From the IMG/VR virus record IMGVR_UViG_3300029258_004309: a DNA stretch of 64,000 nucleotides. One strand, given 5' to 3'. The stretch comes from an uncultured virus (IMG/VR IMGVR_UViG_3300029258_004309) (lineage: Duplodnaviria; Heunggongvirae; Uroviricota; Caudoviricetes). Position numbers and translations under genes: made by a program. The notes beneath the pieces were generated by a model. That model worked only from the letters and a program-made list of their open reading frames with translations, ran no database searches and was not told where the DNA came from. Positions 40,601 to 58,176 of this stretch are shown here, piece by piece; the first letter of the stretch is position 1; the number at the start of each line of letters is the position of its first letter.

Positions 40601-40757
40601 CTCAATCTCCTTGTCGGAGGGCCACCTCCTGACCCTCCGGTTAGAGGGGAAGGGCGCGTACTTCGTCCCTTCAAGGCTCTTATGCCTGCGATCACGCACT
40701 CCTTGCCGCCGCTTCAGCCTGCGCGGTACAGTTGCGAGCAGTCCAGAGAGGAACAGG

Positions 40758-43700
40758 ATGGCGTACCTCGACCCGCAGGAAGCCTTCGACCACTTCCAGA
40801 AGAAAGTAGTTGAGGGAGTAGAGCAACAGTTCCCGGTGAAGGGAAAGCAGCGCAGCCTTCACCTGGAGCGTGTGGAAGTTCCGGAGCCCCCTAGCCCGGA
40901 CGACATCAAAGCGCAGCAGCAGGCGAAGATCGACGGCAAGAGCTGGGGCGTGCCCGTGTACGCCCATCTGACCCTCAAGGACAACGCCACCGGCAAGATC
41001 GTGGACAAGCGCAAGGTGCGCGTCGCCGAAGTCCCGATGATGACGAAGCGCTACAGCTACATCGTCGGCGGGCAGGAGTACCAAGTCGACAGCCAGTGGC
41101 AGCTCAAGCCGGGGGCGTACACCCGCCGCAAGCAGAACCAGCAGCTCGAGACGCAGTTCAACACGACGGGCCCCGGTTCCAAAACGTTCCACTTGAACTT
41201 CCACCCCGACAAGAAGCAGTTCACGGTACGGTGGAACAAGGCGGATATCCCGGCGTACCCGATCCTCAAGACGCTTGGGGTCACTGACGAGCAGCTCAAG
41301 AAGTCCTGGGGTGAGGACATCCTCGACGCCAACAAGAACGCCCGCGGAGTGGACGGGGCGCTCGCCGCGCTGTACCGCTCGGATCGGGGGCGCAACCCTG
41401 AGAACATCGAGCAGGCCAAAGAGCATCTGTGGGACACACTCCAAGCGTCGAAGATGGACAAGAGTGCCACGCACATGACGCTCGGTCGTCCCTTCGAGCA
41501 TGTGAATGGCGACGCGCTGCACATCGCGTCCAAGCGCCTGCTCGACGTGCAGCGAGGCGGCGGCGAGGATGATCGTGACAGCCTGGTGTTCAAGAGGCTC
41601 CGTACGGCTGGCGACTTCGCCCTCGACAAGATGAACAGCCAGAAGTGGGCCGTGCAGAACAAGATGGCCAAGAAGCTCGACACGGCGCAGAGCGTGCGCG
41701 ACGTCGTGAAGTTCGAGCACTTGAACACGGCGGTCCACAAGACCTTCAGCGAGAATCAGGCGTCGCGCGTTGCCAGCCAGATCAATCCGCTCGAGATGGT
41801 CAGCTCCTCGATGCAGACCACGGTCATGGGACCGGGCGGCATCCAATCCGAGCACGCCGTCATCGACCAGACGAAGTGGATCAACCCTTCGCAGTTCGGC
41901 TTCCTCGACCCGATCAACACCCCCGAGGGCCCGAAGACCGGCGTCACCCTGCGGCTGCCCATGGGCGTGCGCAAGAAGGGGGACGAGCCCCGCATCGCCT
42001 TGACGAACATGCAGACGGGCAAGACCGAGTTCGTCTCCCCGGGCCGAGCCATGCAGGAGAACGTGCTGCTGCCTGACCAGGTCGAGTGGAAGGATGGCAA
42101 GCCAAACCCGATCAATGGCAAGAAGTCGAAGATCTTGGGGCCGGGCAACGAGCTCCAGGTGGGCGACGCCAGCAAGGCGAAGTACGTCATGCGGCACCCC
42201 ACGCAGGTGTTCAACATCACCTCGAACATGATCCCGTATCTGCATTCGACGCAGGGTAACCGTGCAGGCATGGCTTCTCGCCACCTCGAACAGGCGGTGA
42301 GCCTCGAAGGAAGGCAGGCCCCTCTGGTGCAGGTAGCCACGGGCGCGGGCAAGGGCCCGTACGACACGTTCGAGGGAATGGTCGGGGCCATGTCGGGGCA
42401 CCAGTCCCCCATCGACGGGACGGTGGAGAAGGTCACCAAGGATGGCATCCACATCAGGGGCAAGGACGGGGTCAAGCACACCGTTCAGCTGTACAACCAC
42501 TACCCGCTCAACGACGTGAAGAGCACCATGCACTCCGAGCCGCTGGTCAAGCCCGGCGACGTGGTGAAGAAGGGGCAGCACATCGGGGACACGAACTTCA
42601 CGAAGGACGGCAAGCTGGCCCTCGGCACCAACCTGCGAGTCGCGTACGCCCCGCTCAAGGGCTACAACTTCGAGGACGGCGTGGTCATCAGCGAGTCCGC
42701 GGCGAAGGCCATGAGCTCGGTGCACATGACGAAGCACTCGTTGGCGGTCGAGCCGGACATGAACTTCGACCCCAAGAGGTTCCGTGCGTTGCACGCCGGT
42801 ACCTACAAGACCGAACAGCTCGATAAGGTGGGGGAGGATGGCGTGGTCGCCGTTGGTACCCGGGTCAAGCCCGGTGACCCCCTCGTGCTCGCCACGCAGC
42901 CCTTCAAGATCAAGGATCGAACGGGCATCGGCGCGTGGAAGAAGAACATGTCGGGCGTGCATACCGACAAGAGCGTGAAGTGGGACGGTGACTACGAGGG
43001 AGAGGTCGTTGGCGTGCACCGTAAGGGCAAGAGCGTGCAGGTACACGTGCGCACAGTCGAGCCCATGCAGGTGGGCGACAAGCTCAGCGGCCGGTACGGC
43101 AACAAGGGCATCGTCACCAAGATCCTCGACAACAGCCAGATGCCGCGCACCAAGGACGGCAGCCACGTCGAGGTGATGCTCAACCCGGCAGGCATCCCCG
43201 GGCGCATCAACCCGTCGCAGGTCTTCGAGACCGTGGCGGCGAAGGTGGCCGACAAGACGGGCAAGCCCATCGTCGTGCAGAACTTCAAGCCTCACGTGGA
43301 CCAGCTGCAAGAGATCAAGAACTTGGCCAAGGCGCACGGGGTGAGCGACACCGAGGAGCTGTACGACCCAGAGACCAACCAGAGCCTCGGGCAGATCCTC
43401 ACCGGCAAGCAGTACATGCTCAAGTTGGTGCACCAAGTAGAGAAGAAGGGCGCGGTGCGCTCTGGCATGTCGCTGCCCGGCACGGACCCGGAGTCGTACG
43501 ACCGCAACCTGCAACCCACGGGCGGCGGGCATCACGGCGGGCAGAGCATGGGCTCTCTTGGCATGTACGCCATGCTGGCCCACGGGGCCAAGGCCAACAT
43601 CCGAGAGATGCAGACGTACAAGAGCGAGGGCCCAGACCCCGCGCCGGCGGAGGCCAAGAAGTGGAAGAGTCAGCACAACGAGGTGTGGCAAGCCATCCAG

Positions 43701-46700
43701 AACGGCTCCCCTCTTCCCCCTCCGAAGCCCTCGTTCGCCTTCTCGAAGTTCAACGACTACCTGAAGGCGTCGGGCGTCAACATGGAGAAGAACGGGCATC
43801 GGTTCGTGCTGACGCCGATGACCGACAAGCAGATCAGGGACATGAGCGCCGGCAAGCTGCCGAAGCCGGACCGCAAGCTCAGCTACAAGCTCGACAAGGA
43901 CGGCAACCCTATGCCCGTGAAGGGTGGGCTGTTTGACGAGCGCATCACCGGCGGGCACGACGGCAAAAACTGGTCGCACATCGAGCTCGCTGAGCCCATC
44001 CCGAACCCCGTGTTCGAGGCCCCCGTACGCGCGCTCACCGGGCTGACGCAGAAGCAGTTCAACGATGTCATGGCCGGCCGCGCCGGCGTCACCCCTGGCG
44101 GCGCCTTCACGGACAACCCCCGAGCAGGGCTGACTGGCGGGCACGCCATCAAGAGCATGCTCAAGAAGGTGGACGTGCAGGCTGACCTCGAGCGCGCCAA
44201 GGCCGAGCTCAAGAGCACGCCCAAGACCAAGGTCGACGCCACGCTCAAGAAGGTCAAGTACCTCGAGGCGCTCAATCGGACTGGGCACACGGCTGAGGAG
44301 GCGTACATCCTGCACAACCTGCCCGTCATTCCTCCGAAGCTGCGCCCCGTCTCCATCCTTCCGGACGGCAGCCTCAACGAGGCGGACTTGAACGGGTTGT
44401 ACTCGGACTTCGGCCAGCTCAACGCGCAGATGGGTGACCCCGTCATTCGCAACAAGCTGCCGGAGGAGCGTAAGGCAAACCTGCGGGGCGCTTACTACGA
44501 CGGCGTCAAGGCGCTCATGGGCATCGGCATTGCCCACAAGGACCAGAAGCAGAAGGGCCTGCTCAACCAGATCCACGGCCCTGAGCCGAAGAAGGGGTTC
44601 TTCCAGAAGACGCTGATGAATCGCCGGCAGGACCTGACGATGCGCTCGACCATCGTGCCCGAGCCCTCCCTGGGCTTGGATGAGGTGGGCATCCCAGAGC
44701 ACTACGCCATGGACCTGTTCCGTCCCTTCGTCGTCAAGCAGCTGGTGCAGTCCGGGTCGGCTAAGTTCGACCTCGACGCGCACAAGATGATCAAGGCGAA
44801 CGATCCTCTCGCGAAGAAAGCACTCGAGCGGGTGATGGACGACAAGCCGGTGCTACTCAAGCGCGACCCTGCGCTGCACAAGTACAACGTGCAGGGCTTC
44901 AAACCGCGGCTCGTCGAGGGCAAGGCCATCAAGATCCACCCCCTGACGTGCTCGGGCTACAACGCGGACTTCGACGGCGACACCATGAGCGTGTACGTGC
45001 CCATCTCTCGGGAAGCCGAGGCTGAGGCGCACAAGATGATGCCCTCGAACAACCTGTTCAGCGACTCGACGGGTAAGGTGATGTACCAGCCGACGCACGA
45101 GTCCGCGCTCGGTCTGTACAAGCTCACGCGCGTCGACAAGAAGACGAACAAGACCTTCGCAAACCCGGGTGACGCCATCAAGGCCGCGCAGGCCGGCAAG
45201 ATCGGGGTGACGGATCTGGTCAGCATCAAGGGTACTGGGCAGACGACGGCGGGGCGCCTTCTGGTGGCCGCCGCGCTTCCGCAGGACATGCAGAAGCAGA
45301 TCGTCAACGACCACAAGTTCGTGCTCGACAAGAAGGGCCTCAACACGATGCTCACGACGCTCGCCAAGCAGAGCGGCGGACTTCAGGAGGGGCAGCGCAA
45401 CACGTACGGCCAGTACGTCGACAGGCTCAAGGATCTGGGCAACGGCGCCGCGTCGGGCATGGCCCCCGTTTACTTCGACAAGTCCCCGGGCAACAACGTG
45501 CTCGACCCCAAGAAGCAGCAGTTCGTTCGCATGGACGCGCACACGCTCAACCTGAACGACCTGTCGCCTGACAAGGCCACGCGCGACCGCATCCTTGCTG
45601 ACACGCAGAAGAAGGTGGATGCAGTCGGCAAGATGAGCCTCTCGCAGGCCGAGAAGGATCGGCGTGCGGTCGATCTGTGGACGCAGGCCGACAAGACGAT
45701 GGGCATGGCCCACAAGCGCAAGATGATGCAGAAGCCTAACAACCTCGGCATCATGAACATGAGCGGCGGCAAGCCGAACTGGGACCAGTACAAGCAGTTC
45801 ACCCTGGCTCCGATGCTCGTAACCGACACCTCAGGCAAGACCGTGCCCATTCCCGTCGACAAGAGCTTCAGCGAGGGGCAGGACGTCTCGGGCTACTGGG
45901 TCGGCATGTACGGAGCTCGCATGGGCGCCGTGCGCAAGGTGCAGGAGGTGCAGGAGCCAGGCGTCATCACCAAGGCCATGCAGAACACCACGATGGACAA
46001 CCTCATCGTGGACCACGACTGCGGGACGACTGGAGGAGTGTCGCTCAACGTCCACGACCGCTCCATCGAGGGCCGGCACCTTGCCAGCGACTTCAAGCAC
46101 GGCAAGTTGCACGTGCCGGCGGGTACCGTGCTGAGCCCCGACATCATTGGGCAGATCCGCTCTGTGAAGAAGGACGCGAATCTCGTCGTGCGCAGCCCGC
46201 TCAAGTGCCAGCACGAAAAGGGCATGTGCCAGAAGTGCATGGGCATCGGCCCCGACGGCAAACACTATGAGGTGGGCACGAACGTGGGCGTCATGGCGGC
46301 GCACTCGCTGGGGGAGAAGACGACGCAGATGATGCTCAACTCCTTCCACACCGGCGGCGTGGCCACGGGCCGCAAGGACCCGTTCGAGCAGTTCAAGCAG
46401 CTGGTGAACCTGCCGGAGAAGGTACCGAACGAAGCGACCCTCGCCGTGCGTTCGGGCACCATCACCAAGGTCGAGCCCCACAAGCTGGGGGCGTACGTGT
46501 ACATCGATGGGCAGCCCCACTTCGTCGGCCGTGACCGTGGGGGCAAACCGCTGAACGAGTCGCTTCCGGTCCCCGGCTTCAGCTACGTGCCTTGGCAGCC
46601 GCCGAAGGCAGGGATGAAAGTCAAGGCGGGGCAGATCCTGAGCGACCCCAACCGCACGACGATCAACCCTCACCACCTTCATCAGGCCACGGGCAAGATC

Positions 46701-47168
46701 GACGTCGTGCGCAACCACCTGTCCAACGAGATCTACGGGCTGTACAAGGACCACGGCGTGGACCGCAAGCACGTGGACGTGCTCGTGAACTCCATGACGT
46801 CGACGACGAAGGTTGTGGACCCGGGCGGCTCCGACGTGCTGCGCGGCGAGTACCGCAACACCAACTGGGTCAAGAACCAGAACAAGCTGCTTCGGGCTCA
46901 GGGCCAGCCCACCGTGCAGCATGCTCCGATCCTCAAGGGGATCAACGAGATGCCCCTGCACATGCGCGAGGACTGGATGGCCAAGCTCCAGCACCAGAAG
47001 CTCAAGCAGACCATCCTCGAGGCCGCGGCCACTGGCGGGTCCACCAGCCTGCATGGCCCGCACCCCGTGCCGGGCATGGCCTACGGCGCCGAGTTCGGCA
47101 TGACCTCCAAGGACGCGCTGCGCCCGGGCAAGTCCCACCTCAAAGACGTCGAACCCTACCACTACTGA
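40758..47168 (+). CDS. Phage DNA-directed RNA polymerase, beta and beta' fused in one ~2136-aa chain
   Basis: beta motifs: DPINTPEGPKTG, GNRAGM, GYNFEDG, GDKLSGRYGNKG, MLNPAGIPGRIN, YMLKLVH, GGQSMG. beta' motifs: GLFDERITG, HIELAEP, LPVIPPKLRP, LLKRDPALH, catalytic YNADFDGD (NADFDGD at 44961-44981), CQKC, trigger loop AAHSLGEKTTQMMLNSFHTGG. Confidence 0.95.
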   Translation: MAYLDPQEAFDHFQKKVVEGVEQQFPVKGKQRSLHLERVEVPEPPSPDDIKAQQQAKIDGKSWGVPVYAHLTLKDNATGKIVDKRKVRVAEVPMMTKRYSYIVGGQEYQVDSQWQLKPGAYTRRKQNQQLETQFNTTGPGSKTFHLNFHPDKKQFTVRWNKADIPAYPILKTLGVTDEQLKKSWGEDILDANKNARGVDGALAALYRSDRGRNPENIEQAKEHLWDTLQASKMDKSATHMTLGRPFEHVNGDALHIASKRLLDVQRGGGEDDRDSLVFKRLRTAGDFALDKMNSQKWAVQNKMAKKLDTAQSVRDVVKFEHLNTAVHKTFSENQASRVASQINPLEMVSSSMQTTVMGPGGIQSEHAVIDQTKWINPSQFGFLDPINTPEGPKTGVTLRLPMGVRKKGDEPRIALTNMQTGKTEFVSPGRAMQENVLLPDQVEWKDGKPNPINGKKSKILGPGNELQVGDASKAKYVMRHPTQVFNITSNMIPYLHSTQGNRAGMASRHLEQAVSLEGRQAPLVQVATGAGKGPYDTFEGMVGAMSGHQSPIDGTVEKVTKDGIHIRGKDGVKHTVQLYNHYPLNDVKSTMHSEPLVKPGDVVKKGQHIGDTNFTKDGKLALGTNLRVAYAPLKGYNFEDGVVISESAAKAMSSVHMTKHSLAVEPDMNFDPKRFRALHAGTYKTEQLDKVGEDGVVAVGTRVKPGDPLVLATQPFKIKDRTGIGAWKKNMSGVHTDKSVKWDGDYEGEVVGVHRKGKSVQVHVRTVEPMQVGDKLSGRYGNKGIVTKILDNSQMPRTKDGSHVEVMLNPAGIPGRINPSQVFETVAAKVADKTGKPIVVQNFKPHVDQLQEIKNLAKAHGVSDTEELYDPETNQSLGQILTGKQYMLKLVHQVEKKGAVRSGMSLPGTDPESYDRNLQPTGGGHHGGQSMGSLGMYAMLAHGAKANIREMQTYKSEGPDPAPAEAKKWKSQHNEVWQAIQNGSPLPPPKPSFAFSKFNDYLKASGVNMEKNGHRFVLTPMTDKQIRDMSAGKLPKPDRKLSYKLDKDGNPMPVKGGLFDERITGGHDGKNWSHIELAEPIPNPVFEAPVRALTGLTQKQFNDVMAGRAGVTPGGAFTDNPRAGLTGGHAIKSMLKKVDVQADLERAKAELKSTPKTKVDATLKKVKYLEALNRTGHTAEEAYILHNLPVIPPKLRPVSILPDGSLNEADLNGLYSDFGQLNAQMGDPVIRNKLPEERKANLRGAYYDGVKALMGIGIAHKDQKQKGLLNQIHGPEPKKGFFQKTLMNRRQDLTMRSTIVPEPSLGLDEVGIPEHYAMDLFRPFVVKQLVQSGSAKFDLDAHKMIKANDPLAKKALERVMDDKPVLLKRDPALHKYNVQGFKPRLVEGKAIKIHPLTCSGYNADFDGDTMSVYVPISREAEAEAHKMMPSNNLFSDSTGKVMYQPTHESALGLYKLTRVDKKTNKTFANPGDAIKAAQAGKIGVTDLVSIKGTGQTTAGRLLVAAALPQDMQKQIVNDHKFVLDKKGLNTMLTTLAKQSGGLQEGQRNTYGQYVDRLKDLGNGAASGMAPVYFDKSPGNNVLDPKKQQFVRMDAHTLNLNDLSPDKATRDRILADTQKKVDAVGKMSLSQAEKDRRAVDLWTQADKTMGMAHKRKMMQKPNNLGIMNMSGGKPNWDQYKQFTLAPMLVTDTSGKTVPIPVDKSFSEGQDVSGYWVGMYGARMGAVRKVQEVQEPGVITKAMQNTTMDNLIVDHDCGTTGGVSLNVHDRSIEGRHLASDFKHGKLHVPAGTVLSPDIIGQIRSVKKDANLVVRSPLKCQHEKGMCQKCMGIGPDGKHYEVGTNVGVMAAHSLGEKTTQMMLNSFHTGGVATGRKDPFEQFKQLVNLPEKVPNEATLAVRSGTITKVEPHKLGAYVYIDGQPHFVGRDRGGKPLNESLPVPGFSYVPWQPPKAGMKVKAGQILSDPNRTTINPHHLHQATGKIDVVRNHLSNEIYGLYKDHGVDRKHVDVLVNSMTSTTKVVDPGGSDVLRGEYRNTNWVKNQNKLLRAQGQPTVQHAPILKGINEMPLHMREDWMAKLQHQKLKQTILEAAATGGSTSLHGPHPVPGMAYGAEFGMTSKDALRPGKSHLKDVEPYHY

Positions 47169-49518: not shown

Positions 49519-50053
49519 GGTCAAAGTCAAGACCAAGCGCTTCATCGATTGCCCGCACTGCGGCGAGGAAGACATGTGCATCGAGCATCTGTTCGACTTC
49601 CAGTCGGGGCAAGAAGAGCGGATGGCTGGTCCGTGGCACTGCAGGCACTGCGGGCACTCGTTCTTCATCTACGTTCGCTCGGATGGTACGGCGCGGATTG
49701 AAGAGCGGGAGGAGGTCAGCTATCCCATCTTCATCCTGCTCGAGATCCCCCCGCAAGAGCAGTCCATCTTCCTGAAGGTGGCCAGCGACTCTTACGGGCG
49801 CCCAGTGGAAGACGACGACCAGCGGTACTTCTACGAGGAGCACACCTGCCCCGTGAACTACTTCCGCAGCGTGAAGGAGATCAAGGTCGGCGACGATGAC
49901 GACCCTCATGGTCTCGCGCTGTATCGGGGATGGTTCGTCGCCGAGTCGAAAGAAGACCAGCACAAGGCGCGCTGGCTCAAGGACAACGGCAACGAGAAGC
50001 AGCACGAACAACTGCCGGAGAAGACAGAAGGAGGTACAGATGAGAACCGTTGA
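49508..50053 (+). CDS. Zinc-ribbon-containing hypothetical protein
   Basis: CPHCG...CRHCG; YFYEEHTCPVN. Confidence 0.6.
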   Translation: MKSEVKVKTKRFIDCPHCGEEDMCIEHLFDFQSGQEERMAGPWHCRHCGHSFFIYVRSDGTARIEEREEVSYPIFILLEIPPQEQSIFLKVASDSYGRPVEDDDQRYFYEEHTCPVNYFRSVKEIKVGDDDDPHGLALYRGWFVAESKEDQHKARWLKDNGNEKQHEQLPEKTEGGTDENR

Positions 50054-50948
50054 ACCAAGCTACGAGATCTTGGCCATTCCCGAGGGTGAGCAGGCTCTTG
50101 CCTTGCTCGAGCGTATCGGGCGCGTGGCCTACAAGAGCGAGGACAAGATCGACAGTGGGTGGGACTGGTGCGAACGCTGTGACGGGCTCGGCTTCATTGA
50201 TGTCAAGAAGGGTGTGGACGAGATCACTGAAGACTGCCCCGAGTGTGGTGGGACGCGGGGGGCACAGGTGCGCGAGCCTTCCAGTCACAAGTTCGTCCGC
50301 ATGATCCTGAAGGCCGAGCGCAAGGCCAAGCTGGTTGAGATGCTCAAAGCGGCGTACCAGGAGACTTGGCGGGACGAAGAGGCCACTACGTTGGCTCACG
50401 ATGACCTGCGGGAGCTTCTGGCGGACAAGACCGTACGTCTCGTGCTCGAGTACATGGAGCAGAACCCGGCACACGAGAGCGTGATCGAACACTGCTCGGC
50501 TACGGTCCTGTTCACGGGCAACCGCGGCTTCACCCACGAGCTCGTTCGCCACCGGCTGGCAGCGTTCACGCAGGAGTCGACGCGCTACTGCAACTACGCC
50601 AAGGGCAAGTTCGGCAGCGACATCACGGTCTCGCCCGATCGGCGCCCCTTGCTCGCGGAGCTCGACAACGGCAAGACCGCCATCGATGCAGCCACGCACT
50701 GGAAGGCGGCAGTGGACGAGGTCAGCTTCCGGTACATCGAGATGGTCAGGGCGGGCATCCCACCGCAGGTCGCCAGGGATGTGCTGCCCCAGGTCTTGAA
50801 GGCCGACATCGTCATGACGGCCAACTTCAGGGAGTGGAGGCACATCTTCCGGATGCGGGACTCCAAGGCCGCGCACCCGGACATGCAGCAGCTCATGCGG
50901 CCGCTGCACGAGGAGTTCCGAAAGCTCGTCCCCATCATCTTCGACTGA
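50040..50948 (+). CDS. thyX: Flavin-dependent thymidylate synthase with a zinc-finger insertion
   Basis: IGRVAYKS, HESVIEH, THELVRHR...QESTRY, ARDVLP, NFREWRH, AHPDM. Confidence 0.92.
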   Translation: MRTVEPSYEILAIPEGEQALALLERIGRVAYKSEDKIDSGWDWCERCDGLGFIDVKKGVDEITEDCPECGGTRGAQVREPSSHKFVRMILKAERKAKLVEMLKAAYQETWRDEEATTLAHDDLRELLADKTVRLVLEYMEQNPAHESVIEHCSATVLFTGNRGFTHELVRHRLAAFTQESTRYCNYAKGKFGSDITVSPDRRPLLAELDNGKTAIDAATHWKAAVDEVSFRYIEMVRAGIPPQVARDVLPQVLKADIVMTANFREWRHIFRMRDSKAAHPDMQQLMRPLHEEFRKLVPIIFD

Positions 50949-50955
50949 GGTGGGG

Positions 50956-51252
50956 ATGAAGACCAAGATTCGGTACGGCCACGACAGGTACTATGTGCTC
51001 GAGGCGGACAGGAAGGCGATGTACGCTCTTCGAGTGATGATCAGCTACGAGCGGCTGATGTCCCGCATCGGCTCGGCGTACGTGTTGACGCTCGCCTTCG
51101 TCCTGATGACTGCCTTGAGGGAGATAGAACTCGGGACCATGTTCGGCCTGTTCGCCTTCAATCTAGCCACGCTTGCGATCCCGCACGTGCACTACATCAT
51201 CGACAGAAACAGGGCGAAAGAAGTCATCGAGAAGGAGGCGGAGGATGGCTGA
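50956..51252 (+). CDS. Small membrane protein
   Basis: Two hydrophobic segments. Confidence 0.5.
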   Translation: MKTKIRYGHDRYYVLEADRKAMYALRVMISYERLMSRIGSAYVLTLAFVLMTALREIELGTMFGLFAFNLATLAIPHVHYIIDRNRAKEVIEKEAEDG

Positions 51253-51405
51253 CCTGCGCTACATCTCCGAGGCAAACAGGCGCGCCGCAGCTCGAAGGCT
51301 GGCGGGACATGACGTCCCCCGAGCCGGCACGCTCCACGAGATCAGCTACTGCAGACGGTGCGGCGCCGCTTTCTACAGCGAGGAGCCGTGCCCAGGGAGG
51401 AGACA

Positions 51406-51648
51406 ATGGGAAGGATGTTCTTCATCATCTGGGACCCCAGGGACGGGGAGCCCCAGCGAGACAACGGCGTCATCACCTCGGACGGCATCATCGGCCGGGT
51501 GACCGAGGAGAACGTGTACATCAAGGCGTACGCTTCCATCAGCGAAGGCGAGAAGAGGCCCGAGGACCTCGAGGTCGGCGCGCACACCTACGCGGAGTTC
51601 TCGTTGTCCGGCTCCAAGGGCCTGTACCGCATCTACCGGGTGGCGTGA
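51406..51648 (+). CDS. Hypothetical protein
   Basis: GGAGG RBS; MGRMFFIIWD... Confidence 0.55.
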   Translation: MGRMFFIIWDPRDGEPQRDNGVITSDGIIGRVTEENVYIKAYASISEGEKRPEDLEVGAHTYAEFSLSGSKGLYRIYRVA

Positions 51649-51892
51649 TGGGCAAGGTCCACTACGCCAGCACCCGGCTGCACAACAACGCCGGCATGCA
51701 GTTCCCGCTGTGTCGGCAGAACGACCGGCTCCTCGACTTGAGTCTCCGCGTCAAGTTCGGCAGGACCACCGAGGTCACCTCAAGGGAGGGCTCAACTACG
51801 GCGGCTGCTACGACCTCGTCAACAAGATCGCCCCGATCTCCAAACCGGCGTTCGAGTCGATGATGTACGAGGCGGACCAGGAGGTACCGTGA
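51648..51892 (+). CDS. Hypothetical protein with an apparent frameshift or deletion junction near 51780
   Basis: MGKVHYAS...GRTTEVT continues as KGGLNYGGCYDLV...DQEVP* in another frame. Confidence 0.35.
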
Positions 51893-52110
51893 ATCGAGAA
51901 TACAAGCAGGGTGACCGGGTCCAGCTGCACCCCGCCACCGACTTTTGGATGAGCGGAGCCCGATACGGCGAGGTCATCCAATGCAGCCTGCGCATGAGCA
52001 AAAAGAAGCCGGACGGCACCAGGACCCACTCGTTCAAGTACAAGGTGCGCTTGGACAGCGGCCACACGGCGTGGTTCAAAGAGCAGGACATCCAGGAGAA
52101 GGTCACATGA
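51889..52110 (+). CDS. Small SH3-like hypothetical protein
   Basis: YKQGDRVQLHPATD.WM.GARYGEV. Confidence 0.55.
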   Translation: MNREYKQGDRVQLHPATDFWMSGARYGEVIQCSLRMSKKKPDGTRTHSFKYKVRLDSGHTAWFKEQDIQEKVT

Positions 52111-52523
52111 GCGGCAGCGACGAGATGGGTAGCCCCTTCAGCATGCAGGACGTGGTGCGGGACATCGTCAGGCGCGGCAGCTATGTGAAGAAGGCGCGGA
52201 TGATCGTGGAGCTCGAGTTGTCGGACGGGCGCCACGCCGTTGCTCGTACCAACGAGTACACGTGCTCCGAGCAGGAGGCTGTTCAAGCTTCCATACGAGG
52301 CCTGGGCAATTCGGCTCTATTCGTGACCGTGAAGCTCGCCATGGACGTGCTGCGGGTGCAGGCCGACCACTTCGTCGAACGCCTCGTCAAACAGGCAGAA
52401 GAAGAGGAGAAAGAAGCCGTCCGCATCAAGCAGTACTTGAACAAGCTTTCGGGCCAGGACGATGAGGAATCCAGGCTTCTTCGTTCGTGGCTACAGGATG
52501 CTCTCAAGCATCGCGGTCTTTGA
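52107..52523 (+). CDS. Hypothetical protein
   Basis: Coupled ORF MSGSDEMG... Confidence 0.55.
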   Translation: MSGSDEMGSPFSMQDVVRDIVRRGSYVKKARMIVELELSDGRHAVARTNEYTCSEQEAVQASIRGLGNSALFVTVKLAMDVLRVQADHFVERLVKQAEEEEKEAVRIKQYLNKLSGQDDEESRLLRSWLQDALKHRGL

Positions 52524-52596
52524 CTTTTCTGTTGACCGAGGTTGCCGTGGGCAGTAGAACAGAAGCCTGCCCAGGCAGCCTGGTCTTTGCATCTTC

Positions 52597-52956
52597 GGGG
52601 GTGACTTGGTTTCGACGTGGATGTCGAAGCGTCTTCTGCGTGCAGGCAGAGGCACCGGAACTGCCTTGACCAAACTGGTGCAGCGTAGTTGCCAACGACA
52701 ACAACGCACTCGCCGCCGTCGCTTGATGGTGGCCGTCGACGGGCGAGGTGTCTCGCGTAGCCCTGAGGCGTCAACCACTCGAGGCTGAGCCCTACCGGTG
52801 GTCTCCTGACGGACCTGAAGAAGGGCGAGATTCATTGGGAGATGACTGGCTGGAAAGACAGCCGAACCCCGCTGGGAGGGTAGACCAGCTACGCACGTGA
52901 ACGAGGAAGCCGTGTAGCTTTCGCGGACCGCAGTTCGATTCTGCGCACCTCCACCA
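52597..52956 (+). ncRNA. ssrA: tmRNA (transfer-messenger RNA), tag (A)ANDNNALAAVA*
   Basis: 5' GGGGGTGACTTGGTTTCGAC. 3' T-arm GCAGTTCGATTCTGC and CACCTCCACCA, giving a G3-U alanyl acceptor stem. Resume codon GCC at 52691; TGA at 52724-52726. Confidence 0.93.
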
Positions 52957-52969
52957 ATAGAAAGGGCAC

Positions 52970-53452
52970 ATGATGGAGTACAACGAGGTTGTACCGCTGT
53001 ACGCGGACAAGTTCTTCGCTCGTGTGGGCTCTCCTACTTCGACAGGGTGCCGAGAGTGGCAAGCCGGACTGGACAAGGACGGTTACGGCCACTTTCAGTT
53101 TCGGCACGAAGGCAAGAAGTACAAGGTTCGAGCTCATCGAGCGGCCTACATGTTGGCCGGCAACTGGCTGCCTCCGGGCGCCATTCTCCGACATACCTGC
53201 GACAATCCTGCGTGCGTGAACCCTGAGCACCTTCTGTGGGGTACACACGCTGACAACGTTCAAGACTGCGTGAGTCGGGGAAGGAACGCGTTTGGGGAAG
53301 GTAACGGCAGGCATGTCATGTGTGACGACGAGGTGTTGGAGCTTCGAGCTTCTGCCTCTTCTTTCATCCATGAGCAAGCGCACAAGTACGGTGTCGATGA
53401 GGCGGCCATACGCGCTGCGTTAGCCCAGCGTACTTGGACCCATGTGCCTTGA
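52970..53452 (+). CDS. HNH homing endonuclease
   Basis: CREWQA...GYGHF...RAHRAAY...LRHTCDNPACVNPEHL..GTHADN. Confidence 0.9.
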   Translation: MMEYNEVVPLYADKFFARVGSPTSTGCREWQAGLDKDGYGHFQFRHEGKKYKVRAHRAAYMLAGNWLPPGAILRHTCDNPACVNPEHLLWGTHADNVQDCVSRGRNAFGEGNGRHVMCDDEVLELRASASSFIHEQAHKYGVDEAAIRAALAQRTWTHVP

Positions 53453-53826
53453 GATCTTTGCTGCTGGGCCGATAACCCAGCGGGCAGAGTAGGTATGTTC
53501 CACCAGAGGGGCTCGCACACCCACTCGAACGGGCCAGCCGGGCCCCTTGCCGTGCGAGGCGAGGGTGGACCGGCACTTGTTCTCATCCCAGGGTGCCGAC
53601 AGGCGTAAAACTGATGATGGCTTAGGTCACCTGGTCCGACCGAAAGCCCCCAGCTGAGCAGGGACCAGCGTGCAAGACGGGAACGTGCGCAGAGCTCAGC
53701 ACACCCTTGGTCGGTTCGTTCTGACCTCGTGGTGCCCGTGACAGCCGGGATAGACCGGCACTTCTTTTGGGCTTCGGCCCTGAAGCCGGGGAACCTTCGC
53801 CAGGCCAGCGAACTGCCATTCCTCGG

Positions 53827-53899
53827 GAGCCTGATACTCGAAGGAACGAGTGCACGAGTTCTTGTCGTGTTTCTGCAGGTTCGAGTCCTGCCAGGCTCG
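53827..53899 (+). tRNA. Aberrant tRNA-like element (nominal anticodon UCU, Arg)
   Basis: Acceptor GAGCCTG/CAGGCTC; D-arm ACTCG/CGAGT; anticodon arm CACGA-GTTCTTG-TCGTG; T-arm GCAGG-TTCGAGT-CCTGC. Lacks U8, purine 37 and CCA. Confidence 0.55.
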
Positions 53900-53949
53900 C
53901 TGGGTACCTGGGTCCCCCTCCGTCGACGGAGGACAGGCCCGGGGTCGGA

Positions 53950-54058
53950 GGGATGGGCTCCTACTCAAGCCCGTGATGATGCTGCATGCGGACCTGGGTC
54001 GCTCAATGGTAGGGTACGTGGGGACACGGTATGCGGGTTCGACTCCCGTCCCATCTCA
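53950..54058 (+). ncRNA. tRNA-like RNA with acceptor and T-arm but a non-canonical core
   Basis: GGGATGGG/CCCATCTC stem stacked on GCGGG-TTCGACT-CCCGT; ~75-nt interior without a normal D/anticodon arm. Confidence 0.45.
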
Positions 54059-54082
54059 TTCAACGTGTGCAGCCTCTCTCAT

Positions 54083-54161
54083 AGCGGGATAGAGGAGTCT
54101 GGTCGTCCTCGCAGGGCTCATAACTCTGAGATCGGTGGTTCGAACCCACCTCCCGCAACCA
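54083..54161 (+). tRNA. tRNA-Met(CAU), initiator-like
   Basis: Cloverleaf; 1:72 mismatch (A/A); CAGGG-CTCATAA-CTCTG anticodon arm; GGTTCGAACC; encoded CCA. Confidence 0.88.
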
Positions 54162-54162
54162 G

Positions 54163-54354
54163 ATGAAAGCTCGAGCAGTAGAGGTGGTGATCACGGTGCT
54201 GTGCTTGGTGGCCGCCGGCGCGGTCGCCTACTTCATGCTTCGGCCTGGTCCATGTGACGGCGTGAAGTGCCCCGAGGGCACCTACCCCATGGAGCAAGGC
54301 GCCGGACTGTTCACCTCGAGGTGCTCGTGCATCGGGCATCCGAAGGATCCGTAG
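54163..54354 (+). CDS. Small membrane-anchored Cys-rich protein
   Basis: 63 aa; N-terminal TM followed by 4 Cys. Confidence 0.5.
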   Translation: MKARAVEVVITVLCLVAAGAVAYFMLRPGPCDGVKCPEGTYPMEQGAGLFTSRCSCIGHPKDP

Positions 54355-54418
54355 CTCAATTGGTGAGAGCCCCCGGCTCATAACCGGGCTGTTGGCGGTT
54401 CGAACCCGCCCGGATCTA
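54345..54418 (+). tRNA. tRNA with CAU anticodon (Ile2/lysidine-type or elongator Met)
   Basis: GGATCCG/CGGATCT acceptor; TAGCTCAATTGG D-arm; CCCGG-CTCATAA-CCGGG; GGTTCGAACC; no encoded CCA. Confidence 0.88.
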
Positions 54419-54420
54419 CT

Positions 54421-54847
54421 GAGTTCTGTCAGGAGGTAGGCCTAGAAGCAGCCATCCTTCAAAGAGTCGCCAATGGCAGCAGCCGGAGTACCAGCGATGG
54501 ACCGCCGGCCCGAGAGGCTTCGGCCTCGAAGCGTCCCACCAGACGTTTGCACCACCAGGTTAGTCCCAGGTGGGAGTCTTAGAGCTCATTGGGGAATGTG
54601 GGCGTAGAGCCATCGGGAAGCGAATGTGGGAGGTAAACCGCGTCAGCCTTTTCAAAGCCTGGTAACAGGTGGAGTTCCTGAGTCCTGACGTGGGGGAAGT
54701 ACCATCAGTAGCACGGCCGGTTTTGCCCGCACGGACGAGAGGAACTGCGGGTTTGACTTGAAGGGATCAGAATGAGCCCTGTGCCCCTTCGGGGATGACC
54801 GGTACAGCCCTAAGAGCGTTTGGCGTAGCAGCACACTGTCAGAACTC
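54421..54847 (+). ncRNA. Large structured RNA containing 23S rRNA GTPase-associated-centre and sarcin-ricin-loop-like elements
   Basis: Closing stem GAGTTCTG/CAGAACTC. H43-like CAGGAGGTAGGCCTAGAAGCAGCCATCCTTCAAAGAGT (54430-54467). H44-like GCGTAGCAGCACACTG (54823-54838). SRL-like CCCGCA-CGGACGAGAGGAAC-TGCGGG (54726-54751). Confidence 0.8.
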
Positions 54848-54952
54848 GCAACTCAGGGACGGCGGCATGGTGTCTGGGGAGACCCCAGGCCGGCCCGCTC
54901 GGGGGTTCATGAAACACCGCCGTCCTCTCTTTTTAGCCGCCAGGAGCAGAAG

Positions 54953-55321
54953 ATGCGTTTGAAAACAAAGCTGAAGAAGATCTTGAGCACCCGTCTCACC
55001 GACGTGACGACGCGCGCGGCCAAGCGACTTCCGACCCGCATGCTCGAGGGCATCGTGTGGGCCGGCTACTATGTGCCGCGCACGCTCAAGCTGCCCATCG
55101 TCGGGTCGCTGCACACCGCCGCGTTCTTCGAGTACGGAGATCGGCTCGAGTCAGAGTCCCCCCTGCCGGCTGGGCGCAAGAGCGCGTACGAGCGCAAGAC
55201 CTCGAATCAGGCTGCGGGGTGCAGGGGCGTCAAAGGCCGGACCACGGTCATCGAGATGAGCGAGCCCTTGGAGAGCTACCCGATCCCGCGACATCGCCCG
55301 GCTACGGAGATCGACGCATGA
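54953..55321 (+). CDS. Hypothetical basic protein
   Basis: AGGAG RBS; 122 aa. Confidence 0.5.
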   Translation: MRLKTKLKKILSTRLTDVTTRAAKRLPTRMLEGIVWAGYYVPRTLKLPIVGSLHTAAFFEYGDRLESESPLPAGRKSAYERKTSNQAAGCRGVKGRTTVIEMSEPLESYPIPRHRPATEIDA

Positions 55322-55776
55322 GCACAGAGAGGTCGCTACGCGACGTGCTCGAGGGCAGGGGCGAGCTGCGCAAGCCCAAGAGGGCGGGCTTCTGGGCCGA
55401 TAACCCACCGAAAGAAGATGGCAAGTCTCAGGGCCTCATGCAGTACCTGCGCATGGAGCATGAGAAGTCGATGCAGGAGTACCCGATTGCACAGCAGCAT
55501 GTAGACCCGCAGTGGGCTATCGACAGCCCGGTAGAATGGGCGGCAGTAGTGACGCACCTTCGCGCCGGCAAGGAGAAGGACTGGTACAAGGGCTCGTCGA
55601 GCTGCCGGTTGTGCGGGTGCACCGACGGATCGGCGGACATGACGGACGGTGAGTGGGTGTGGCCCCAGGGTCTCCTGCACTACATCATCGTGCACGACGT
55701 CAAGCCTCCGAACCAGGAGTTCATCGACCACTGCGTGCGGGAGCTCAAGAGGCGCTTCGCCTTCAAGGACGGTTGA
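55318..55776 (+). CDS. Hypothetical protein
   Basis: YKGSSSCRLCG...GSADMTDGEWVWPQGLLHYI..HDVKPP conserved-looking motif. Confidence 0.65.
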   Translation: MSTERSLRDVLEGRGELRKPKRAGFWADNPPKEDGKSQGLMQYLRMEHEKSMQEYPIAQQHVDPQWAIDSPVEWAAVVTHLRAGKEKDWYKGSSSCRLCGCTDGSADMTDGEWVWPQGLLHYIIVHDVKPPNQEFIDHCVRELKRRFAFKDG

Positions 55777-55807
55777 GTCGTCCGCCGCTCACCTGTACTC
55801 TACCGTC

Positions 55808-56353
55808 ATGGAAGAGCGACTTGTAGAAGAAGAACCGAAGGAAGAGCAGAGCAAGCCGCACGAGCGGATCGCGGAGCTCGAGGTGGAGCTGGCAGCGGCC
55901 AAGGCCAAGAAGGCCGACGCAGAAGCCCGCGCGGCCAACCAGAAGGCCTTCGGGGACAAGGCGCGGGCTTGGAGGGAGTGGGTGCAGCTCGGCCTGCTCA
56001 TTCTCGGCCCGGCGCTAGGCGGCTACGCCGTGCTCACGAAGGCCTCGTCCGAGAAGGTGGAGAAGAATTACGATCGGACCAGGGAGGCCATCGAACGGCT
56101 TGACGAGAACGTACAGGAGCAGCACAAGGCCACGAAAGATGCGGTCGACTTCACAGAGAAGGCGACCAAGGCCGTGGCGAGTGCTCTGCCCGTCCCCGCA
56201 ACCTCCGCGGCTCCCTCAGCGGCAGGGGGCACGGGTGGGGGCACCCACCACGCGGCGAGCGACGAGCCCCCTCAGCCGGACATCCCCGATCCCCCGAAGC
56301 TGTCCGAACCAAAACCTCCAGTTGCGCTGCCCCCTGCCTCTGCCGCATTCTGA
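55808..56353 (+). CDS. Membrane protein with coiled coils and a Pro-rich tail
   Basis: Single TM WVQLGLLILGPALGGYAVL. Confidence 0.55.
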   Translation: MEERLVEEEPKEEQSKPHERIAELEVELAAAKAKKADAEARAANQKAFGDKARAWREWVQLGLLILGPALGGYAVLTKASSEKVEKNYDRTREAIERLDENVQEQHKATKDAVDFTEKATKAVASALPVPATSAAPSAAGGTGGGTHHAASDEPPQPDIPDPPKLSEPKPPVALPPASAAF

Positions 56354-56359
56354 GAGCCC

Positions 56360-57568
56360 ATGGGTCGCTACTTCCCCAACCGAACCACTGAGATTCTGCA
56401 GGCCAGCGTCATCAACATCGACATGGTCCAGTGGACCGTGGACGTGTACTCCAAGAAGGTGGGTCGGTGGTTCCCGAATGTGCAGGTCGGCAACATGTAC
56501 TTGCACCACGCCGCCGGCGAGGGCGTCTACGCCGTGCCGGACCTGGGCGCCACGTGCATGATCTGCCTACCCACGGACCTGTCTCCGCCCTTCATCCTGT
56601 CGTACGTCGCGCCGCCCGAGGTGATCAGCGGCGACGAGGTGGACAACCCCGACGAGGAGCTGGCCGAGGAGCTGGCCAAGGACGGCGATGCGCTGGACCA
56701 GGCCGACAGCTCCTCGAGGACGCGTCCTCTCGGCTTCACGTTCGGGTTGCGGCGTGGGCGCGCCAAGCCGGGCGACATCGTCATGCGGGGCAGGGACGGC
56801 AACTTCGTCATCCTGCACCGAGGCGGGGTGCTCCAGCTCGGCGCCAGCGAACTCGCTCAGCGCATCTATCTGCCCCTGCGCAACCTCATCATGGACATGG
56901 CCGAGCGTTACCGCATGACGACGGCTGCCGGCACCATCCGTTGGGGGATGCAGGAGCTCGACTACGAGAAGCGTGAGACCGAATGGATGCAGACGCTTCG
57001 CGTGTTCGCCGATGACGCCTACGCGGACCTTCGGATCGTTTGCGGGCACGTGAACAACCCCGTGCGCCTGCCCGAGGGGGACGACGACAAGGACATCCTC
57101 GACCAGATGCAGTTTGCCGTGAACGCCCCGGTCGTCTACGAGGTCACGCTGCTGCCGGGGGGCAAAGACAGCGGCTTCAACGCTGAGAGCGGCGAGGTCT
57201 ACAAGAAGAGCTACAACCAGATGAAGCTCCAGTGGAAGTTCGACCGTGACGGCAAGGCGTACGGAAGGTTCGATGGTGACGCGTTCCTGAGCTGTCAGAA
57301 GAACCTGTTCGTGCGCGTCAAAGGGAACCTGGACATTCAGTCCAAGGGCGTGGTCAATCTGACGGGCGACGGCAATGCGACGCTCGGGGGCAAGGGCACC
57401 ACCAAGGTCAAGGGGCAGGAAGTCATCTTGGCCGATGGGGCCTTGGGCGTGGCGCGGATGGCCGACCAGGTTGCAATCGTCCTGCCCCCTAGCCTGGCGG
57501 GGCAGGCGGGGCTGCCTGTGCTGTACGGATCGATCATCACCTCGAGCGCCAAGGTCAAGGTGCCCTGA
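56360..57568 (+). CDS. Baseplate spike / gpV-like protein
   Basis: N-terminal OB-fold-like region (GVYAVPDLGATCMI); PGDIVMRGRDGN; C-terminal beta-helix repeats and VARMADQV...GSIITSSAKVKV. Confidence 0.65.
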   Translation: MGRYFPNRTTEILQASVINIDMVQWTVDVYSKKVGRWFPNVQVGNMYLHHAAGEGVYAVPDLGATCMICLPTDLSPPFILSYVAPPEVISGDEVDNPDEELAEELAKDGDALDQADSSSRTRPLGFTFGLRRGRAKPGDIVMRGRDGNFVILHRGGVLQLGASELAQRIYLPLRNLIMDMAERYRMTTAAGTIRWGMQELDYEKRETEWMQTLRVFADDAYADLRIVCGHVNNPVRLPEGDDDKDILDQMQFAVNAPVVYEVTLLPGGKDSGFNAESGEVYKKSYNQMKLQWKFDRDGKAYGRFDGDAFLSCQKNLFVRVKGNLDIQSKGVVNLTGDGNATLGGKGTTKVKGQEVILADGALGVARMADQVAIVLPPSLAGQAGLPVLYGSIITSSAKVKVP

Positions 57569-58176
57569 TGTTCGACGTGCCGCTTACCGACTATCAGCTG
57601 GTTGACGTCAACGTGGGGCTGGCCGCGGCCCTGAGCGTCATCAACCCCTTGGCCTTGTCGCTGGAGGCTTCGCTGTTCGGGGCCTTCGGCCTCGGCCCGT
57701 TGCAACTCGACTTCCAGGCCCGGCTCGACGCAGCGTTGTCGGTGAGCCTGAACTGGAACCCTTCGGCGCAGATCCAGGCGCTGGGAGAGTTGGCCGGTGC
57801 CATCAGCGCCGGGCTCGTCCTGCCGCTCCCAGCGGTCAACGCCAGTGCCGACGCTGCCGCGGACCTCCAGCTCAAGATTGGCGGCATCCAGATCCTGCTC
57901 GACGCCGGCCTTGCCCTCATTCTACCCAGCCTCGATGCGGTGGCGGCCGGACAGGCAGCGCTGAGCGCGAGTCTCGGGTACTTGGTTTGGCACGGTTCAG
58001 GCGCCCAATTGGCCGCCGAGCTGTACCCGGCTATCACGGCCAAGTACGGTACTGCGGGAGGGGTCTACGCCCTCTGCCTGTTCTTTGACGCTGCTGCTTT
58101 CGCCACCATCAGCGGCAACATCTTCGTGGGCATCCCGGGCGTGCCAAACGCCGCCATGTTCAAGACGACCCCGTAG
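57568..58176 (+). CDS. Hydrophobic Ala/Leu-rich virion protein next to the spike gene
   Basis: TGATG-coupled to the spike gene. Confidence 0.55.
   Translation: MFDVPLTDYQLVDVNVGLAAALSVINPLALSLEASLFGAFGLGPLQLDFQARLDAALSVSLNWNPSAQIQALGELAGAISAGLVLPLPAVNASADAAADLQLKIGGIQILLDAGLALILPSLDAVAAGQAALSASLGYLVWHGSGAQLAAELYPAITAKYGTAGGVYALCLFFDAAAFATISGNIFVGIPGVPNAAMFKTTP

Follow-up and report, generated by a model that had tools for sequence, protein, structure and literature searches.

Organisation of the RNA island

This report concerns a 2.4-kb island of RNA genes at 52525-54935 of a 64,000-nucleotide stretch of DNA, referred to as the window, from an uncultured virus of the Caudoviricetes (IMG/VR record IMGVR_UViG_3300029258_004309), and above all the last RNA of this island, a 429-nt element at 54420-54848 that appears to imitate a domain of the 23S ribosomal RNA (rRNA) and is called the mimic below. 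The source of the window is a large phage, and its G+C content is about 62%. Judged by third-position G+C, coding DNA extends to 52523 and starts again at 54953, and between these points only 54163-54354 is gene-like. All parts of the island are encoded on the + strand. They are bounded by the stop codon of the preceding gene and by a U-tract hairpin and comprise, in this order, a transfer-messenger RNA (tmRNA) gene, a cassette with an HNH endonuclease gene, two tRNA-like elements, an initiator-like tRNA(CAU) (tRNA(CAU)#1), a 63-codon open reading frame (ORF), a second tRNA(CAU) (tRNA(CAU)#2) and the mimic. The coding parts are limited to the HNH gene (52970-53452) and the 63-codon ORF (54163-54354), in agreement with an earlier note on this DNA, which had described a one-strand island interrupted by these two genes only.

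An RNA with the design of the GTPase-associated centre

The first base of the mimic directly abuts the end of tRNA(CAU)#2, and the two ends of the element pair with each other. The 5' half (54420-54467) comprises a strand resembling helix 42 (H42; 54420-54432), a copy of helix 43 (H43; 54434-54458), the mini-hairpin 1082-1086 (54459-54463) and GAGU (54464-54467). The 3' half (54819-54848), delimited by sequence and by anchored comparison, comprises UUUG, a copy of helix 44 (H44; 54823-54834, with the loop GUAGCA), an A and a second H42-like strand (54836-54848), which forms with 54420-54432 a closing helix of 12 standard pairs and one U-U in 13. The two halves are separated by a variable domain of about 350 nt (54468-54818) that is inserted in the 5' strand of H44 and is the longest of 64 inserts compared. 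Paired in this way, the ends are predicted to rebuild the uL11/thiostrepton domain, which is the GTPase-associated centre (GAC), with the tip of H42, H43 and H44 (E. coli 1051-1108). The element is one RNA of 429 nt, in which what had previously been listed as a 23S mimic and as further structured segments after the last tRNA are combined.

The first clue to 23S rRNA came from foreign public contigs that aligned to 54432-54465 and continued in 23S-like letters. By blastn, 54426-54465 is 85% identical over 40 nt to positions 1048-1087 of E. coli 23S rRNA (E 1.3e-7 against one rRNA operon), and the same segment matches 23S genes in 5426 of 5426 E. coli genomes. When 556 nt were searched with the Rfam large-subunit (LSU) rRNA model, 54428-54477 aligned at 18.6 bits (E 0.0013) to model positions 1092-1149, precisely those of the 58-nt domain, so that the 23S look-alike of the earlier note is borne out. 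The segment 54434-54467 has an rRNA-identical H43 core, the pairs 1057-1059/1079-1081 and 1082/1086 (A-U, G-C, G-C, U-A) and then GAGU, and the 3' half has UUUGGCGUAnnAGCACA, the H44 copy, followed by the strand that pairs with the 5' flank; these are the features by which we recognise members of the family described below. The covariance model of this family, R1, gives two hits in the window and no others, at 54423-54482 (45.7 bits, E 1.9e-11) and at 54585-54845 (17.4 bits, E 0.0015).

Several other readings of this DNA were tried and rejected. A 23S gene or gene fragment (RF02541) would have to be called from 18.6 bits against a cut-off of 50, with model positions 1092-1149 only, and blastn of 52500-55000 against E. 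coli 23S rRNA found no other significant likeness. A candidate sarcin-ricin loop mimic at 54487-54503 has only the flanks AGUAC...GGACC, the GAGA tetraloop being replaced by seven other bases; this flank pattern has two further occurrences in coding parts of the window, and AGTAC is missing from the 14 5-mers that are most enriched in the family inserts. Two other likenesses are at chance level, one to the L1 stalk at 54568-54583 (14/16, E 4.8) and one to the start of a second GAC at 53613-53625 (12/13, E 14); R1 detected no second copy in the window. Inside the insert, R1 aligned a short, degenerate H43-like hairpin at 54591-54616, which may be a decayed internal duplicate.

A family of mimics in phage tRNA arrays

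By pattern scan, at least 118 IMG/VR loci contain the 18-nt core of H43. Their similarity to E. coli 23S rRNA is longer than 200 nt in 0 of 118 and always ends near 1051-1087. Among the 94 distinct instances (93 in another count), 66 show the same split design of 5' half, insert, 3' half with UUUGGCGUAnnAGCACA and closing helix of at least 6 pairs; many of the 28 instances without it had only 300 nt of flank. The total lengths of the 66 complete elements range from 107 to 458 nt with a median of 206 nt, and the element of the window (429 nt) is the second longest. The 64 inserts compared, that of the window included, span 37-347 nt and share only short motifs in subsets, with no recurrent likeness to other rRNA regions.

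Covariation of the helices within the family is strong. Among 57 anchored elements, standard pairing at 1058-1080 is found in 56 (shuffled mean 23.4), with five different types of pair; at 1057-1081 it is found in 54 and at 1082-1086 in 49 (U-A in 27, C-G in 20). The pairs G1091-C1100 and C1092-G1099 are invariant in these elements, as are the bases U1060 and A1088; the two pairs presumably take part in base triples or tertiary contacts of the rRNA domain. The G+C content of the phages concerned spans 0.37-0.67, yet the H43 and H44 loops and the invariant pairs are kept. In an alignment of 28 short members made with MAFFT (A3), 93.8% of the cells pair, compared to 65.9% in shuffles (reached by 0 of 500) and 31-53% with the partner slid, and the covariation score is 0.671 versus 0.160. 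The helix that closes the insert lay outside the selection criteria; here, 88.4% of the cells pair, and four of four pairs have changes on both sides. In 56 of 58 sources outside its training set, R1 matched over the whole model, with scores of 40-128 bits.

The elements are closely associated with tRNA genes. For 51 distinct complete elements, 3 kb or more of flank is available; tRNA or tmRNA genes lie within 3 kb of 43 of them, and the neighbouring tRNA/tmRNA genes are on the same strand as the element in 378 cases and on the opposite strand in 0. A tRNA ends at most 5 nt upstream of the element in 18 of the 51, a tRNA starts at most 40 nt downstream in 19, and a tmRNA accompanies two. At two loci, L203 and L235, a tmRNA lies 340-440 nt downstream of the mimic, in reversed order compared to the window. 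One further locus (L213) has two mimic copies (3001-3018 and 3319-3336) that lie 318 nt apart with a tRNA-Pro between them.

Unannotated blastn matches were found in eight cultured phages, namely Cronobacter phage GAP32, Pectobacterium phage CBB, Pseudomonas phages pf16, Astolliot and UNO-G1W1, Xanthomonas phage XacN1, Aeromonas phage 4_4572 and Paenibacillus phage Pd_22F. In pf16, the one checked with R1, the model scores 116 bits, and the element occupies the unannotated interval from tRNA-Asn to tRNA-Pro. A 34-nt stretch that matches the 5' half of the mimic at 85-88% is present in Pseudomonas phage AH05 and in 11 phages like it, all about 40 kb in size; it lies on the other strand within an annotated hypothetical-protein gene and could be due to chance or be a coding-embedded copy. 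Of 120 loci from a scan of genome_contigs (596 Gb) with a 15-base pattern of the 3' half, three (L312, L329 and L337) also have the 5' half and were confirmed by R1; the scan as such is uninformative, as we estimate that about a thousand random matches are to be expected in 596 Gb. The three loci carry complete members (92-111 bits) on contigs filed as a Clostridiaceae isolate, an Acidimicrobiales metagenome-assembled genome (MAG) and a Ruminococcus MAG, and these contigs may be prophages or binned phage contigs. Rfam 15 returned no family for the mimic RNA among matches up to E<=10 in 52300-55200 and 54405-54960, and literature searches of openly accessible papers yielded no description of a phage rRNA or GAC mimic.

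We regard the identity of the parts of the island and the membership of the mimic in this family as nearly certain. Compared to the GAC of bacterial 23S rRNA, the mimics preserve both the set of helices and their order: the bacterial consensus is followed in the H43 stem-loop and in the 1082-1090 junction, the stem pairs of H44 and its loop pattern GUAnnA are kept, and an H42-like helix closes the domain. In contrast to their rRNA counterpart, the mimics sit in phage tRNA arrays, outside any rRNA gene, their likeness ends at the domain edges, and the sequence of H42 is free. They also carry the insert of about 37-350 nt between U1090 and G1091, and position 1101 is A in 56 of 57 elements but U in the rRNA consensus.

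tmRNA, tRNA genes and tRNA-like elements

The gene for the tmRNA (52597-52956) was detected by ARAGORN and by Rfam, where it scores 107.9 bits against a cut-off of 47 for RF00023 and covers the full model (1-374 of 374). It encodes its CCA end and, according to ARAGORN, the tag ANDNNALAAVA*, the frame of which is closed by a stop codon; in the Rfam alignment, the acceptor stem is GGGGGUG / CACCUCC and includes the pair G3-U70. A search for SmpB (PF01668) gave no match in the two IMG/VR records of this phage, G002 and G012, and the phage tmRNA would therefore depend on the SmpB of the host. Upstream of the gene, 36 nt before its start, the sequence can be read as a pair of weak promoter-like hexamers, TTGACC-17 nt-TAGAAC (52532-52560), that might serve as a promoter; a sigma-70-like consensus scan of 50000-57500 returned 0 sites, with this pair below the threshold. 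A further tmRNA was noticed on contig C12 (L005) of the MAG G001, at 26034-26460 on the minus strand (133.9 bits); it was missed by ARAGORN and is very unlike the tmRNA of the phage.

The two tRNA-like elements, which the earlier note had called aberrant, are real, and both score under the Rfam tRNA cut-off of 29. The first (53827-53900) is a non-canonical gene with the anticodon UCU, reported by ARAGORN as tRNA-Arg(tct), which carries U at position 37 and scores 22.8 bits with RF00005 (E 0.014, 291 nt searched). The second (53992-54057; 26.7 bits, E 0.0011) has no anticodon loop: its acceptor, D and T arms are intact and its anticodon arm consists of a 4-bp stem with a 4-nt loop. Neither of them combines a score above 29 with the 7-nt anticodon loop of a canonical tRNA. 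The 5' end of the second element is directly repeated just after the first (53901-53914 and 53987-54000), a repeat that looks like the product of tRNA copy turnover. Judged from the sequence, the two elements resemble tRNA genes in decay, with duplications of 5' fragments, rather than decoys; for the rRNA mimic, the idea of a decoy is reasonable.

The two canonical calls of the earlier note are sound. A bacterial initiator tRNA is recognised by a CAU anticodon, a mismatch at 1:72 and a purine at position 11 that is paired with a pyrimidine at 24. tRNA(CAU)#1 (54083-54161; ARAGORN; Rfam 48.6 bits), which encodes its CCA, has in the alignment of 54083-54158 an A1xA72 mismatch, A73 and A11:U24. 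In its anticodon stem, G29-C41, G30-U40 and G31-C39 amount to two G-C pairs and one G-U pair instead of three G-C pairs, and because of this G-U among the pairs 29-31/39-41 we call it initiator-like and not a textbook initiator. tRNA(CAU)#2 (54345-54419; ARAGORN; Rfam 65.6 bits) is an elongator Met or Ile2 tRNA. In a blastn search of the island against INPHARED, matches were confined to the tRNA parts. Two further tRNA genes of the same phage were observed outside the window, about 25 kb past the island, at G012:C1:30735-30807 and 30871-30949 (48.3 and 45.8 bits); the island thus does not hold the full tRNA set of the phage.

HNH cassette, spacers, small ORF and terminal hairpin

A free-standing HNH homing-endonuclease cassette (52957-53452, ORF 52970-53452) stands directly behind the CCA of the tmRNA. 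The gene product matches PF13392 (HNH_3) with 35.4 bits against a cut-off of 24.8 and phrog_59 with E 7e-28. Its third-position G+C is unlike that of the other genes of the phage, a composition that fits a mobile origin, and the cassette is a clean presence/absence polymorphism at a fixed site, a strain variant (X6) being without exactly the 496 nt 52957-53452. By domain score and site polymorphism, the gene is classed as that of a homing endonuclease. The arrangement is that of phage tRNA/tmRNA clusters with homing endonucleases, which likewise combine a tmRNA, tRNAs and a mobile endonuclease gene on one strand; in T-even phages, the endonuclease SegB has been tied to a tRNA(Tyr)-based escape from Septu defence (PMC13096335). 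The present island differs from such clusters in that the endonuclease is of the HNH_3 type and lies directly behind the tmRNA CCA, and in the presence of the rRNA mimic.

The cassette is followed by a 126-nt module (53453-53578) with two hairpins, the second of which terminates in ...GACCGGCACTT, and by a spacer (53579-53826) with a terminator-like hairpin (53744-53759) and a T-rich tail. The GACCGGCACTT motif is directly repeated (53563-53581 and 53748-53766), two hairpin copies carrying it at their end. The module is missing from a second strain variant (X7), and the spacer is about 97-99% identical in X6 and X7. A scan for terminators gave four sites compared to 4.5 in shuffles, i.e. no excess, and one of them lies within the island at 53744-53768. 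At least three more structured segments had been proposed for the island, but the minimum-free-energy z-scores of the three spacers are ordinary (-0.71 for 53453-53826, -0.02 for the second and -0.92 for the whole spacer after the last tRNA), and the hairpins at 54468-54818 are the insert of the one mimic RNA. Rfam at E<=10 gave no match for the spacers 53453-53826 and 53901-53991. In nhmmer searches of 161 related-phage loci (2.33 Mb) and 118 phage tRNA-array loci (0.46 Mb), neither 53453-53826 nor the insert of the mimic gave a hit, and 53901-54082 gave only weak hits (E 0.06-0.27) in its tRNA-like part. The spacers in 53453-54082 have no fold signal and no homologues beyond the strain variants.

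The 63-codon ORF (54163-54354) encodes an N-terminal hydrophobic helix and a Cys-rich tail, and its final 10 nt overlap tRNA(CAU)#2. Its in-frame third-position G+C is 0.84, as in true genes of this phage, and it is retained in variant X6; no Pfam or PHROG family was matched. It is predicted to be a gene for a small membrane protein. Behind the mimic, sequence and fold indicate a branched hairpin (54857-54934) with a 9-bp G+C-rich stem (54857-54865 with 54917-54925) and a U-tract. This structure was missed by the simple terminator scan, its loop being too large, and is a probable terminator or attenuator, located 18 nt before the ATG of the next gene (54953).

Strain variants and relatives

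The composition of the island differs between strain variants, which are represented by public contigs. Variant X6 joins 52956 to 53453 with one letter between them and is thus without the HNH cassette, and X7 joins 52956 to 53579 and is without both the cassette and the 126-nt module. The likeness of X6 to the window furthermore breaks off at 53992 and is restored from 54163 on; in between, other DNA takes the place of the second tRNA-like element and of tRNA(CAU)#1. The HNH cassette, the 126-nt module and the segment with the tRNA-like element and tRNA(CAU)#1 are hence gained and lost independently among strain variants. The 1-nt indels listed for X6 on this stretch (10 positions; 11 gaps counted in the aligned piece 54163-55323) all fall at 54548-54771, within the insert of the mimic.

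More distant relatives were collected through the baseplate-like protein encoded downstream of the island, for which 229 homologues were found; the loci around them are 72 from IMG/VR and 79 from metagenomes. A tmRNA is present in 0 of the 72 other IMG/VR loci and in one of the 79 other metagenome loci (L087), and no mimic was found near the baseplate-like gene in these 72 and 79 loci. In L087, where the baseplate-like protein is 50% identical, the order is tmRNA (tag ANDNAQLAAA*), terminator, tRNA(CAU), terminator, and nothing else; this tRNA(CAU) is 79% identical to tRNA(CAU)#1 of the window and shares the 1x72 mismatch.

Interpretation of the mimic and of the island

With somewhat more belief than doubt, we consider the island as a whole best explained as a same-strand cluster of RNA genes that ends in a GAC-mimic RNA of the phage tRNA-array family. 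The tRNAs and the mimic would be co-transcribed, and the mimic would be cut free by RNase P and the tRNA 3'-end enzymes; since the mimic abuts tRNA ends, such a release from tRNA precursors is probable. The free mimic would fold like the rRNA domain, act off the ribosome and bind something that normally recognises this site, and we take this off-ribosome mimicry to be fairly probable as well. As the loops are unchanged and the stem pairs invariant, the tertiary fold of the rRNA, and not a mere hairpin, seems to be needed. Away from the ribosome, a look-alike of this site could act only by being bound in place of the original, and what might bind it is uL11 with the stalk, a translation GTPase, or an enzyme or compound directed against the site.

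The ADP-ribosylating toxin Tre23 is reported to modify H44 near 1095-1098 and to impair EF-G (PMC8661411), and the mimic could be a decoy for an attack of this kind on the GAC or, failing that, a sink for uL11 or the stalk. The decoy is weakly favoured over the protein sink, and a toxin decoy specifically is a tentative proposal. A broader version, in which GAC mimics are decoys for immune or competition effectors at the factor-docking site, be they ADP-ribosyltransferases of the Tre23 kind, nucleases or small molecules, is rather more doubtful; if it were true, the abundance of the mimics in phage tRNA arrays would make attack on this rRNA site a common, still unrecognised arm of anti-phage defence, and the mimic, the tmRNA and the initiator-like tRNA would jointly sustain translation under attack. 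Phage tRNAs have been reported to replace tRNAs cut by defence nucleases (PMC10264068, PMC11555353), and the mimic would extend this replacement logic from tRNAs to the ribosome itself. In any case, the mimic points to a binding partner, be it a ribosomal protein, a translation GTPase or a site-directed toxin, and because cultured carriers such as Pseudomonas phage pf16 exist, the question is directly testable. To this, the window adds one of the longest members of the family, natural variants with and without the HNH gene, and the association of the mimic with a tmRNA and an initiator-like tRNA. What the island holds besides the mimic, i.e. the tmRNA, the tRNAs, the homing endonuclease and the decaying tRNA copies, is ordinary for large phages; tmRNAs, for instance, have been reported in huge phages (PMC7162821).

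A number of observations weigh against this explanation. A 2.9-kb Rfam search at E<=10 gave no LSU match, which was seen only in the 556-nt search, and R1 matches the element of the window only as two separate hits. We attribute the split to the insert of about 350 nt, and other members with long inserts (L204, L209, L212, L222 and L235, with scores of 45-54 bits) are split by R1 in the same way. Of the short helix by which other members close their insert, only three in-register pairs are present here. In the family, the covariation of H42 is inflated by the selection for at least 6 closing pairs, the unbiased support being that of H43, of 1082-1086 and of the insert-closing helix. The identity between strain variants is a mosaic of 92-99% by segment along the genome, for which reason the high identity of the spacers in X6 and X7, above that of the flanking genes, is no proof of constraint. 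L087, the nearest tmRNA-bearing relative, is without a mimic, which must therefore be dispensable for the phage lineage as a whole. RNA runs were queried for 52400-55100, and none was listed as containing the stretch. Finally, nothing ties the mimic family to a defence system or to uL11 binding, and its function is inferred.

Among the alternatives, an unlikely one is that the mimic serves as a sink or lure, for host uL11 or for the uL10-bL12 stalk, and has no role in protection. It would divert newly made stalk proteins or disturb their autoregulation or RelA activation, and in this way retune translation or the stringent response of the host. uL11 binds the domain that is copied, and G1091-C1100, C1092-G1099, U1060 and A1088, with their presumed role in tertiary contacts, are invariant in the family. 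Most cellular uL11 is, however, already bound to ribosomes, its binding by the mimic is only putative, and 64 of 64 inserts interrupt H44 by at least 37 nt. Cultured phages have been reported to encode bL12 domains that keep the residues contacting uL11 and elongation factors (PMC6375957), a sign that phages do interfere with the stalk, but the two records of the present phage, about 177 kb in all, contain no gene for uL11 or bL12.

A decoy among ordinary RNA genes also has to be set against the scenario of the earlier note, in which the whole 2.4 kb is one co-adapted precursor and acts as a counter-defence kit against translation shut-off that rescues ribosomes, replaces tRNAs and offers a number of decoys. 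Both the list of parts and the label of a translation-focused RNA island can be kept, and the location of all parts on one strand between a stop codon and the U-tract hairpin, the known replacement of tRNAs by phages (PMC10264068, PMC11555353) and the tmRNA 340-440 nt after the mimic in L203 and L235 speak for such a kit. Its integration, on the other hand, is not borne out by the modules themselves: the HNH cassette, the 126-nt module and the segment 53993-54162 vary independently in strains, and the tRNA-like elements are below the cut-off and have duplicated fragments typical of decay. A tmRNA is near only two of 51 family loci, a terminator-like hairpin stands inside the island, and two more tRNA genes lie about 25 kb off in the same phage. 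In L087, the island is reduced to a tmRNA and one tRNA(CAU), each with its own terminator. As regards a single transcript, no promoter passed the scan and terminator-like sites are not above shuffles. A single co-adapted precursor is not supported by this modular variation, and we consider the kit improbable.

Still less credit is given to a role of the mimic in cis, as a structure for processing, stability or attenuation at the junction where the tRNA transcript ends and, from 54953, the structural-gene operon begins, with the likeness to rRNA reflecting the re-use of a stable fold. The mimic is indeed the last RNA before the U-tract hairpin, with the ribosome-binding site of the next gene 18 nt further, and the closing helices of 10-30 bp in the family bring to mind the processing stems of RNase III. 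In most family loci, however, the element sits between two tRNA genes and not before an operon, and stability alone does not call for unchanged H43 and H44 loops and invariant pairs across a G+C range of 0.37-0.67. That the rRNA-like stretch is inert scrap of host 23S rRNA picked up with tRNA genes, the rest of 54420-54935 being spacer, can be called hardly credible and is already disfavoured: the LSU score of 18.6 against a cut-off of 50 and the ordinary fold energy of the whole spacer (z -0.92) would suit it, but the likeness is bounded by the edges of the 58-nt domain, both halves are present within a closing helix of unrelated sequence, the split architecture recurs with compensatory changes in at least 66 distinct phage elements, and 0 of 118 loci extend into neighbouring rRNA.

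Comparison with other structured RNAs

The leaders of ribosomal-protein operons (L10, L1) are loose, partial imitations of rRNA sites that act in cis in the 5' leaders of these operons. Like the mimic, they are non-ribosomal RNAs that imitate a protein-binding site of rRNA; unlike them, the mimic is a near-exact copy of a whole domain and lies between tRNA genes. We rejected the assignment of the mimic to this class, given that no uL11 or bL12 gene is present in the phage records and that the downstream genes are either without a family or baseplate-like; the leader families of Rfam gave no match at E<=10 in 52300-55200 or 54405-54960.

GOLLD and ROOL are described as large structured RNAs that often occur near tRNA genes and in prophages and are possibly co-transcribed with tRNAs (PMC5737381). 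The neighbourhood of tRNA genes and prophages is common to them and the mimic, but the fold is not shared, and the Rfam models of GOLLD and ROOL gave no match in the same two intervals at the same threshold. In the paper on these RNAs, the word rRNA occurs 0 times, and a copying of rRNA by them is not reported.

Genomic setting and minor observations

The window is 100% identical to contig C1 of the MAG G001, which is the candidate host genome. No 23S gene is assembled in G001, and a partial 23S sequence of one of its relatives (positions 1689-2912, which do not cover the GAC) has no match in the window. Two IMG/VR records overlap the window: G002 (85 kb) stops at 48690, and a 92-kb record (G012, L004) begins at about 48546. 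Jointly they cover about 177 kb, with CheckV completeness of 46% and 50%, and the genome of the phage is roughly 180 kb in size.

The island is flanked by a ThyX gene upstream and by a baseplate-like module downstream. In the ThyX ORF (49896-50948), the Thy1 domain begins only at residue 147 of 350, and third-position G+C suggests that the true start is at about 50040, with an overlapping gene upstream of it. Variant X6 is without a gene in 55324-55766 (55323 is joined to 55767 with two letters between them), and the adjacent 55767-58000 is 99% identical. Further upstream in the window, an ORF of 2217 codons extends from 40515 to 47168 on the + strand.

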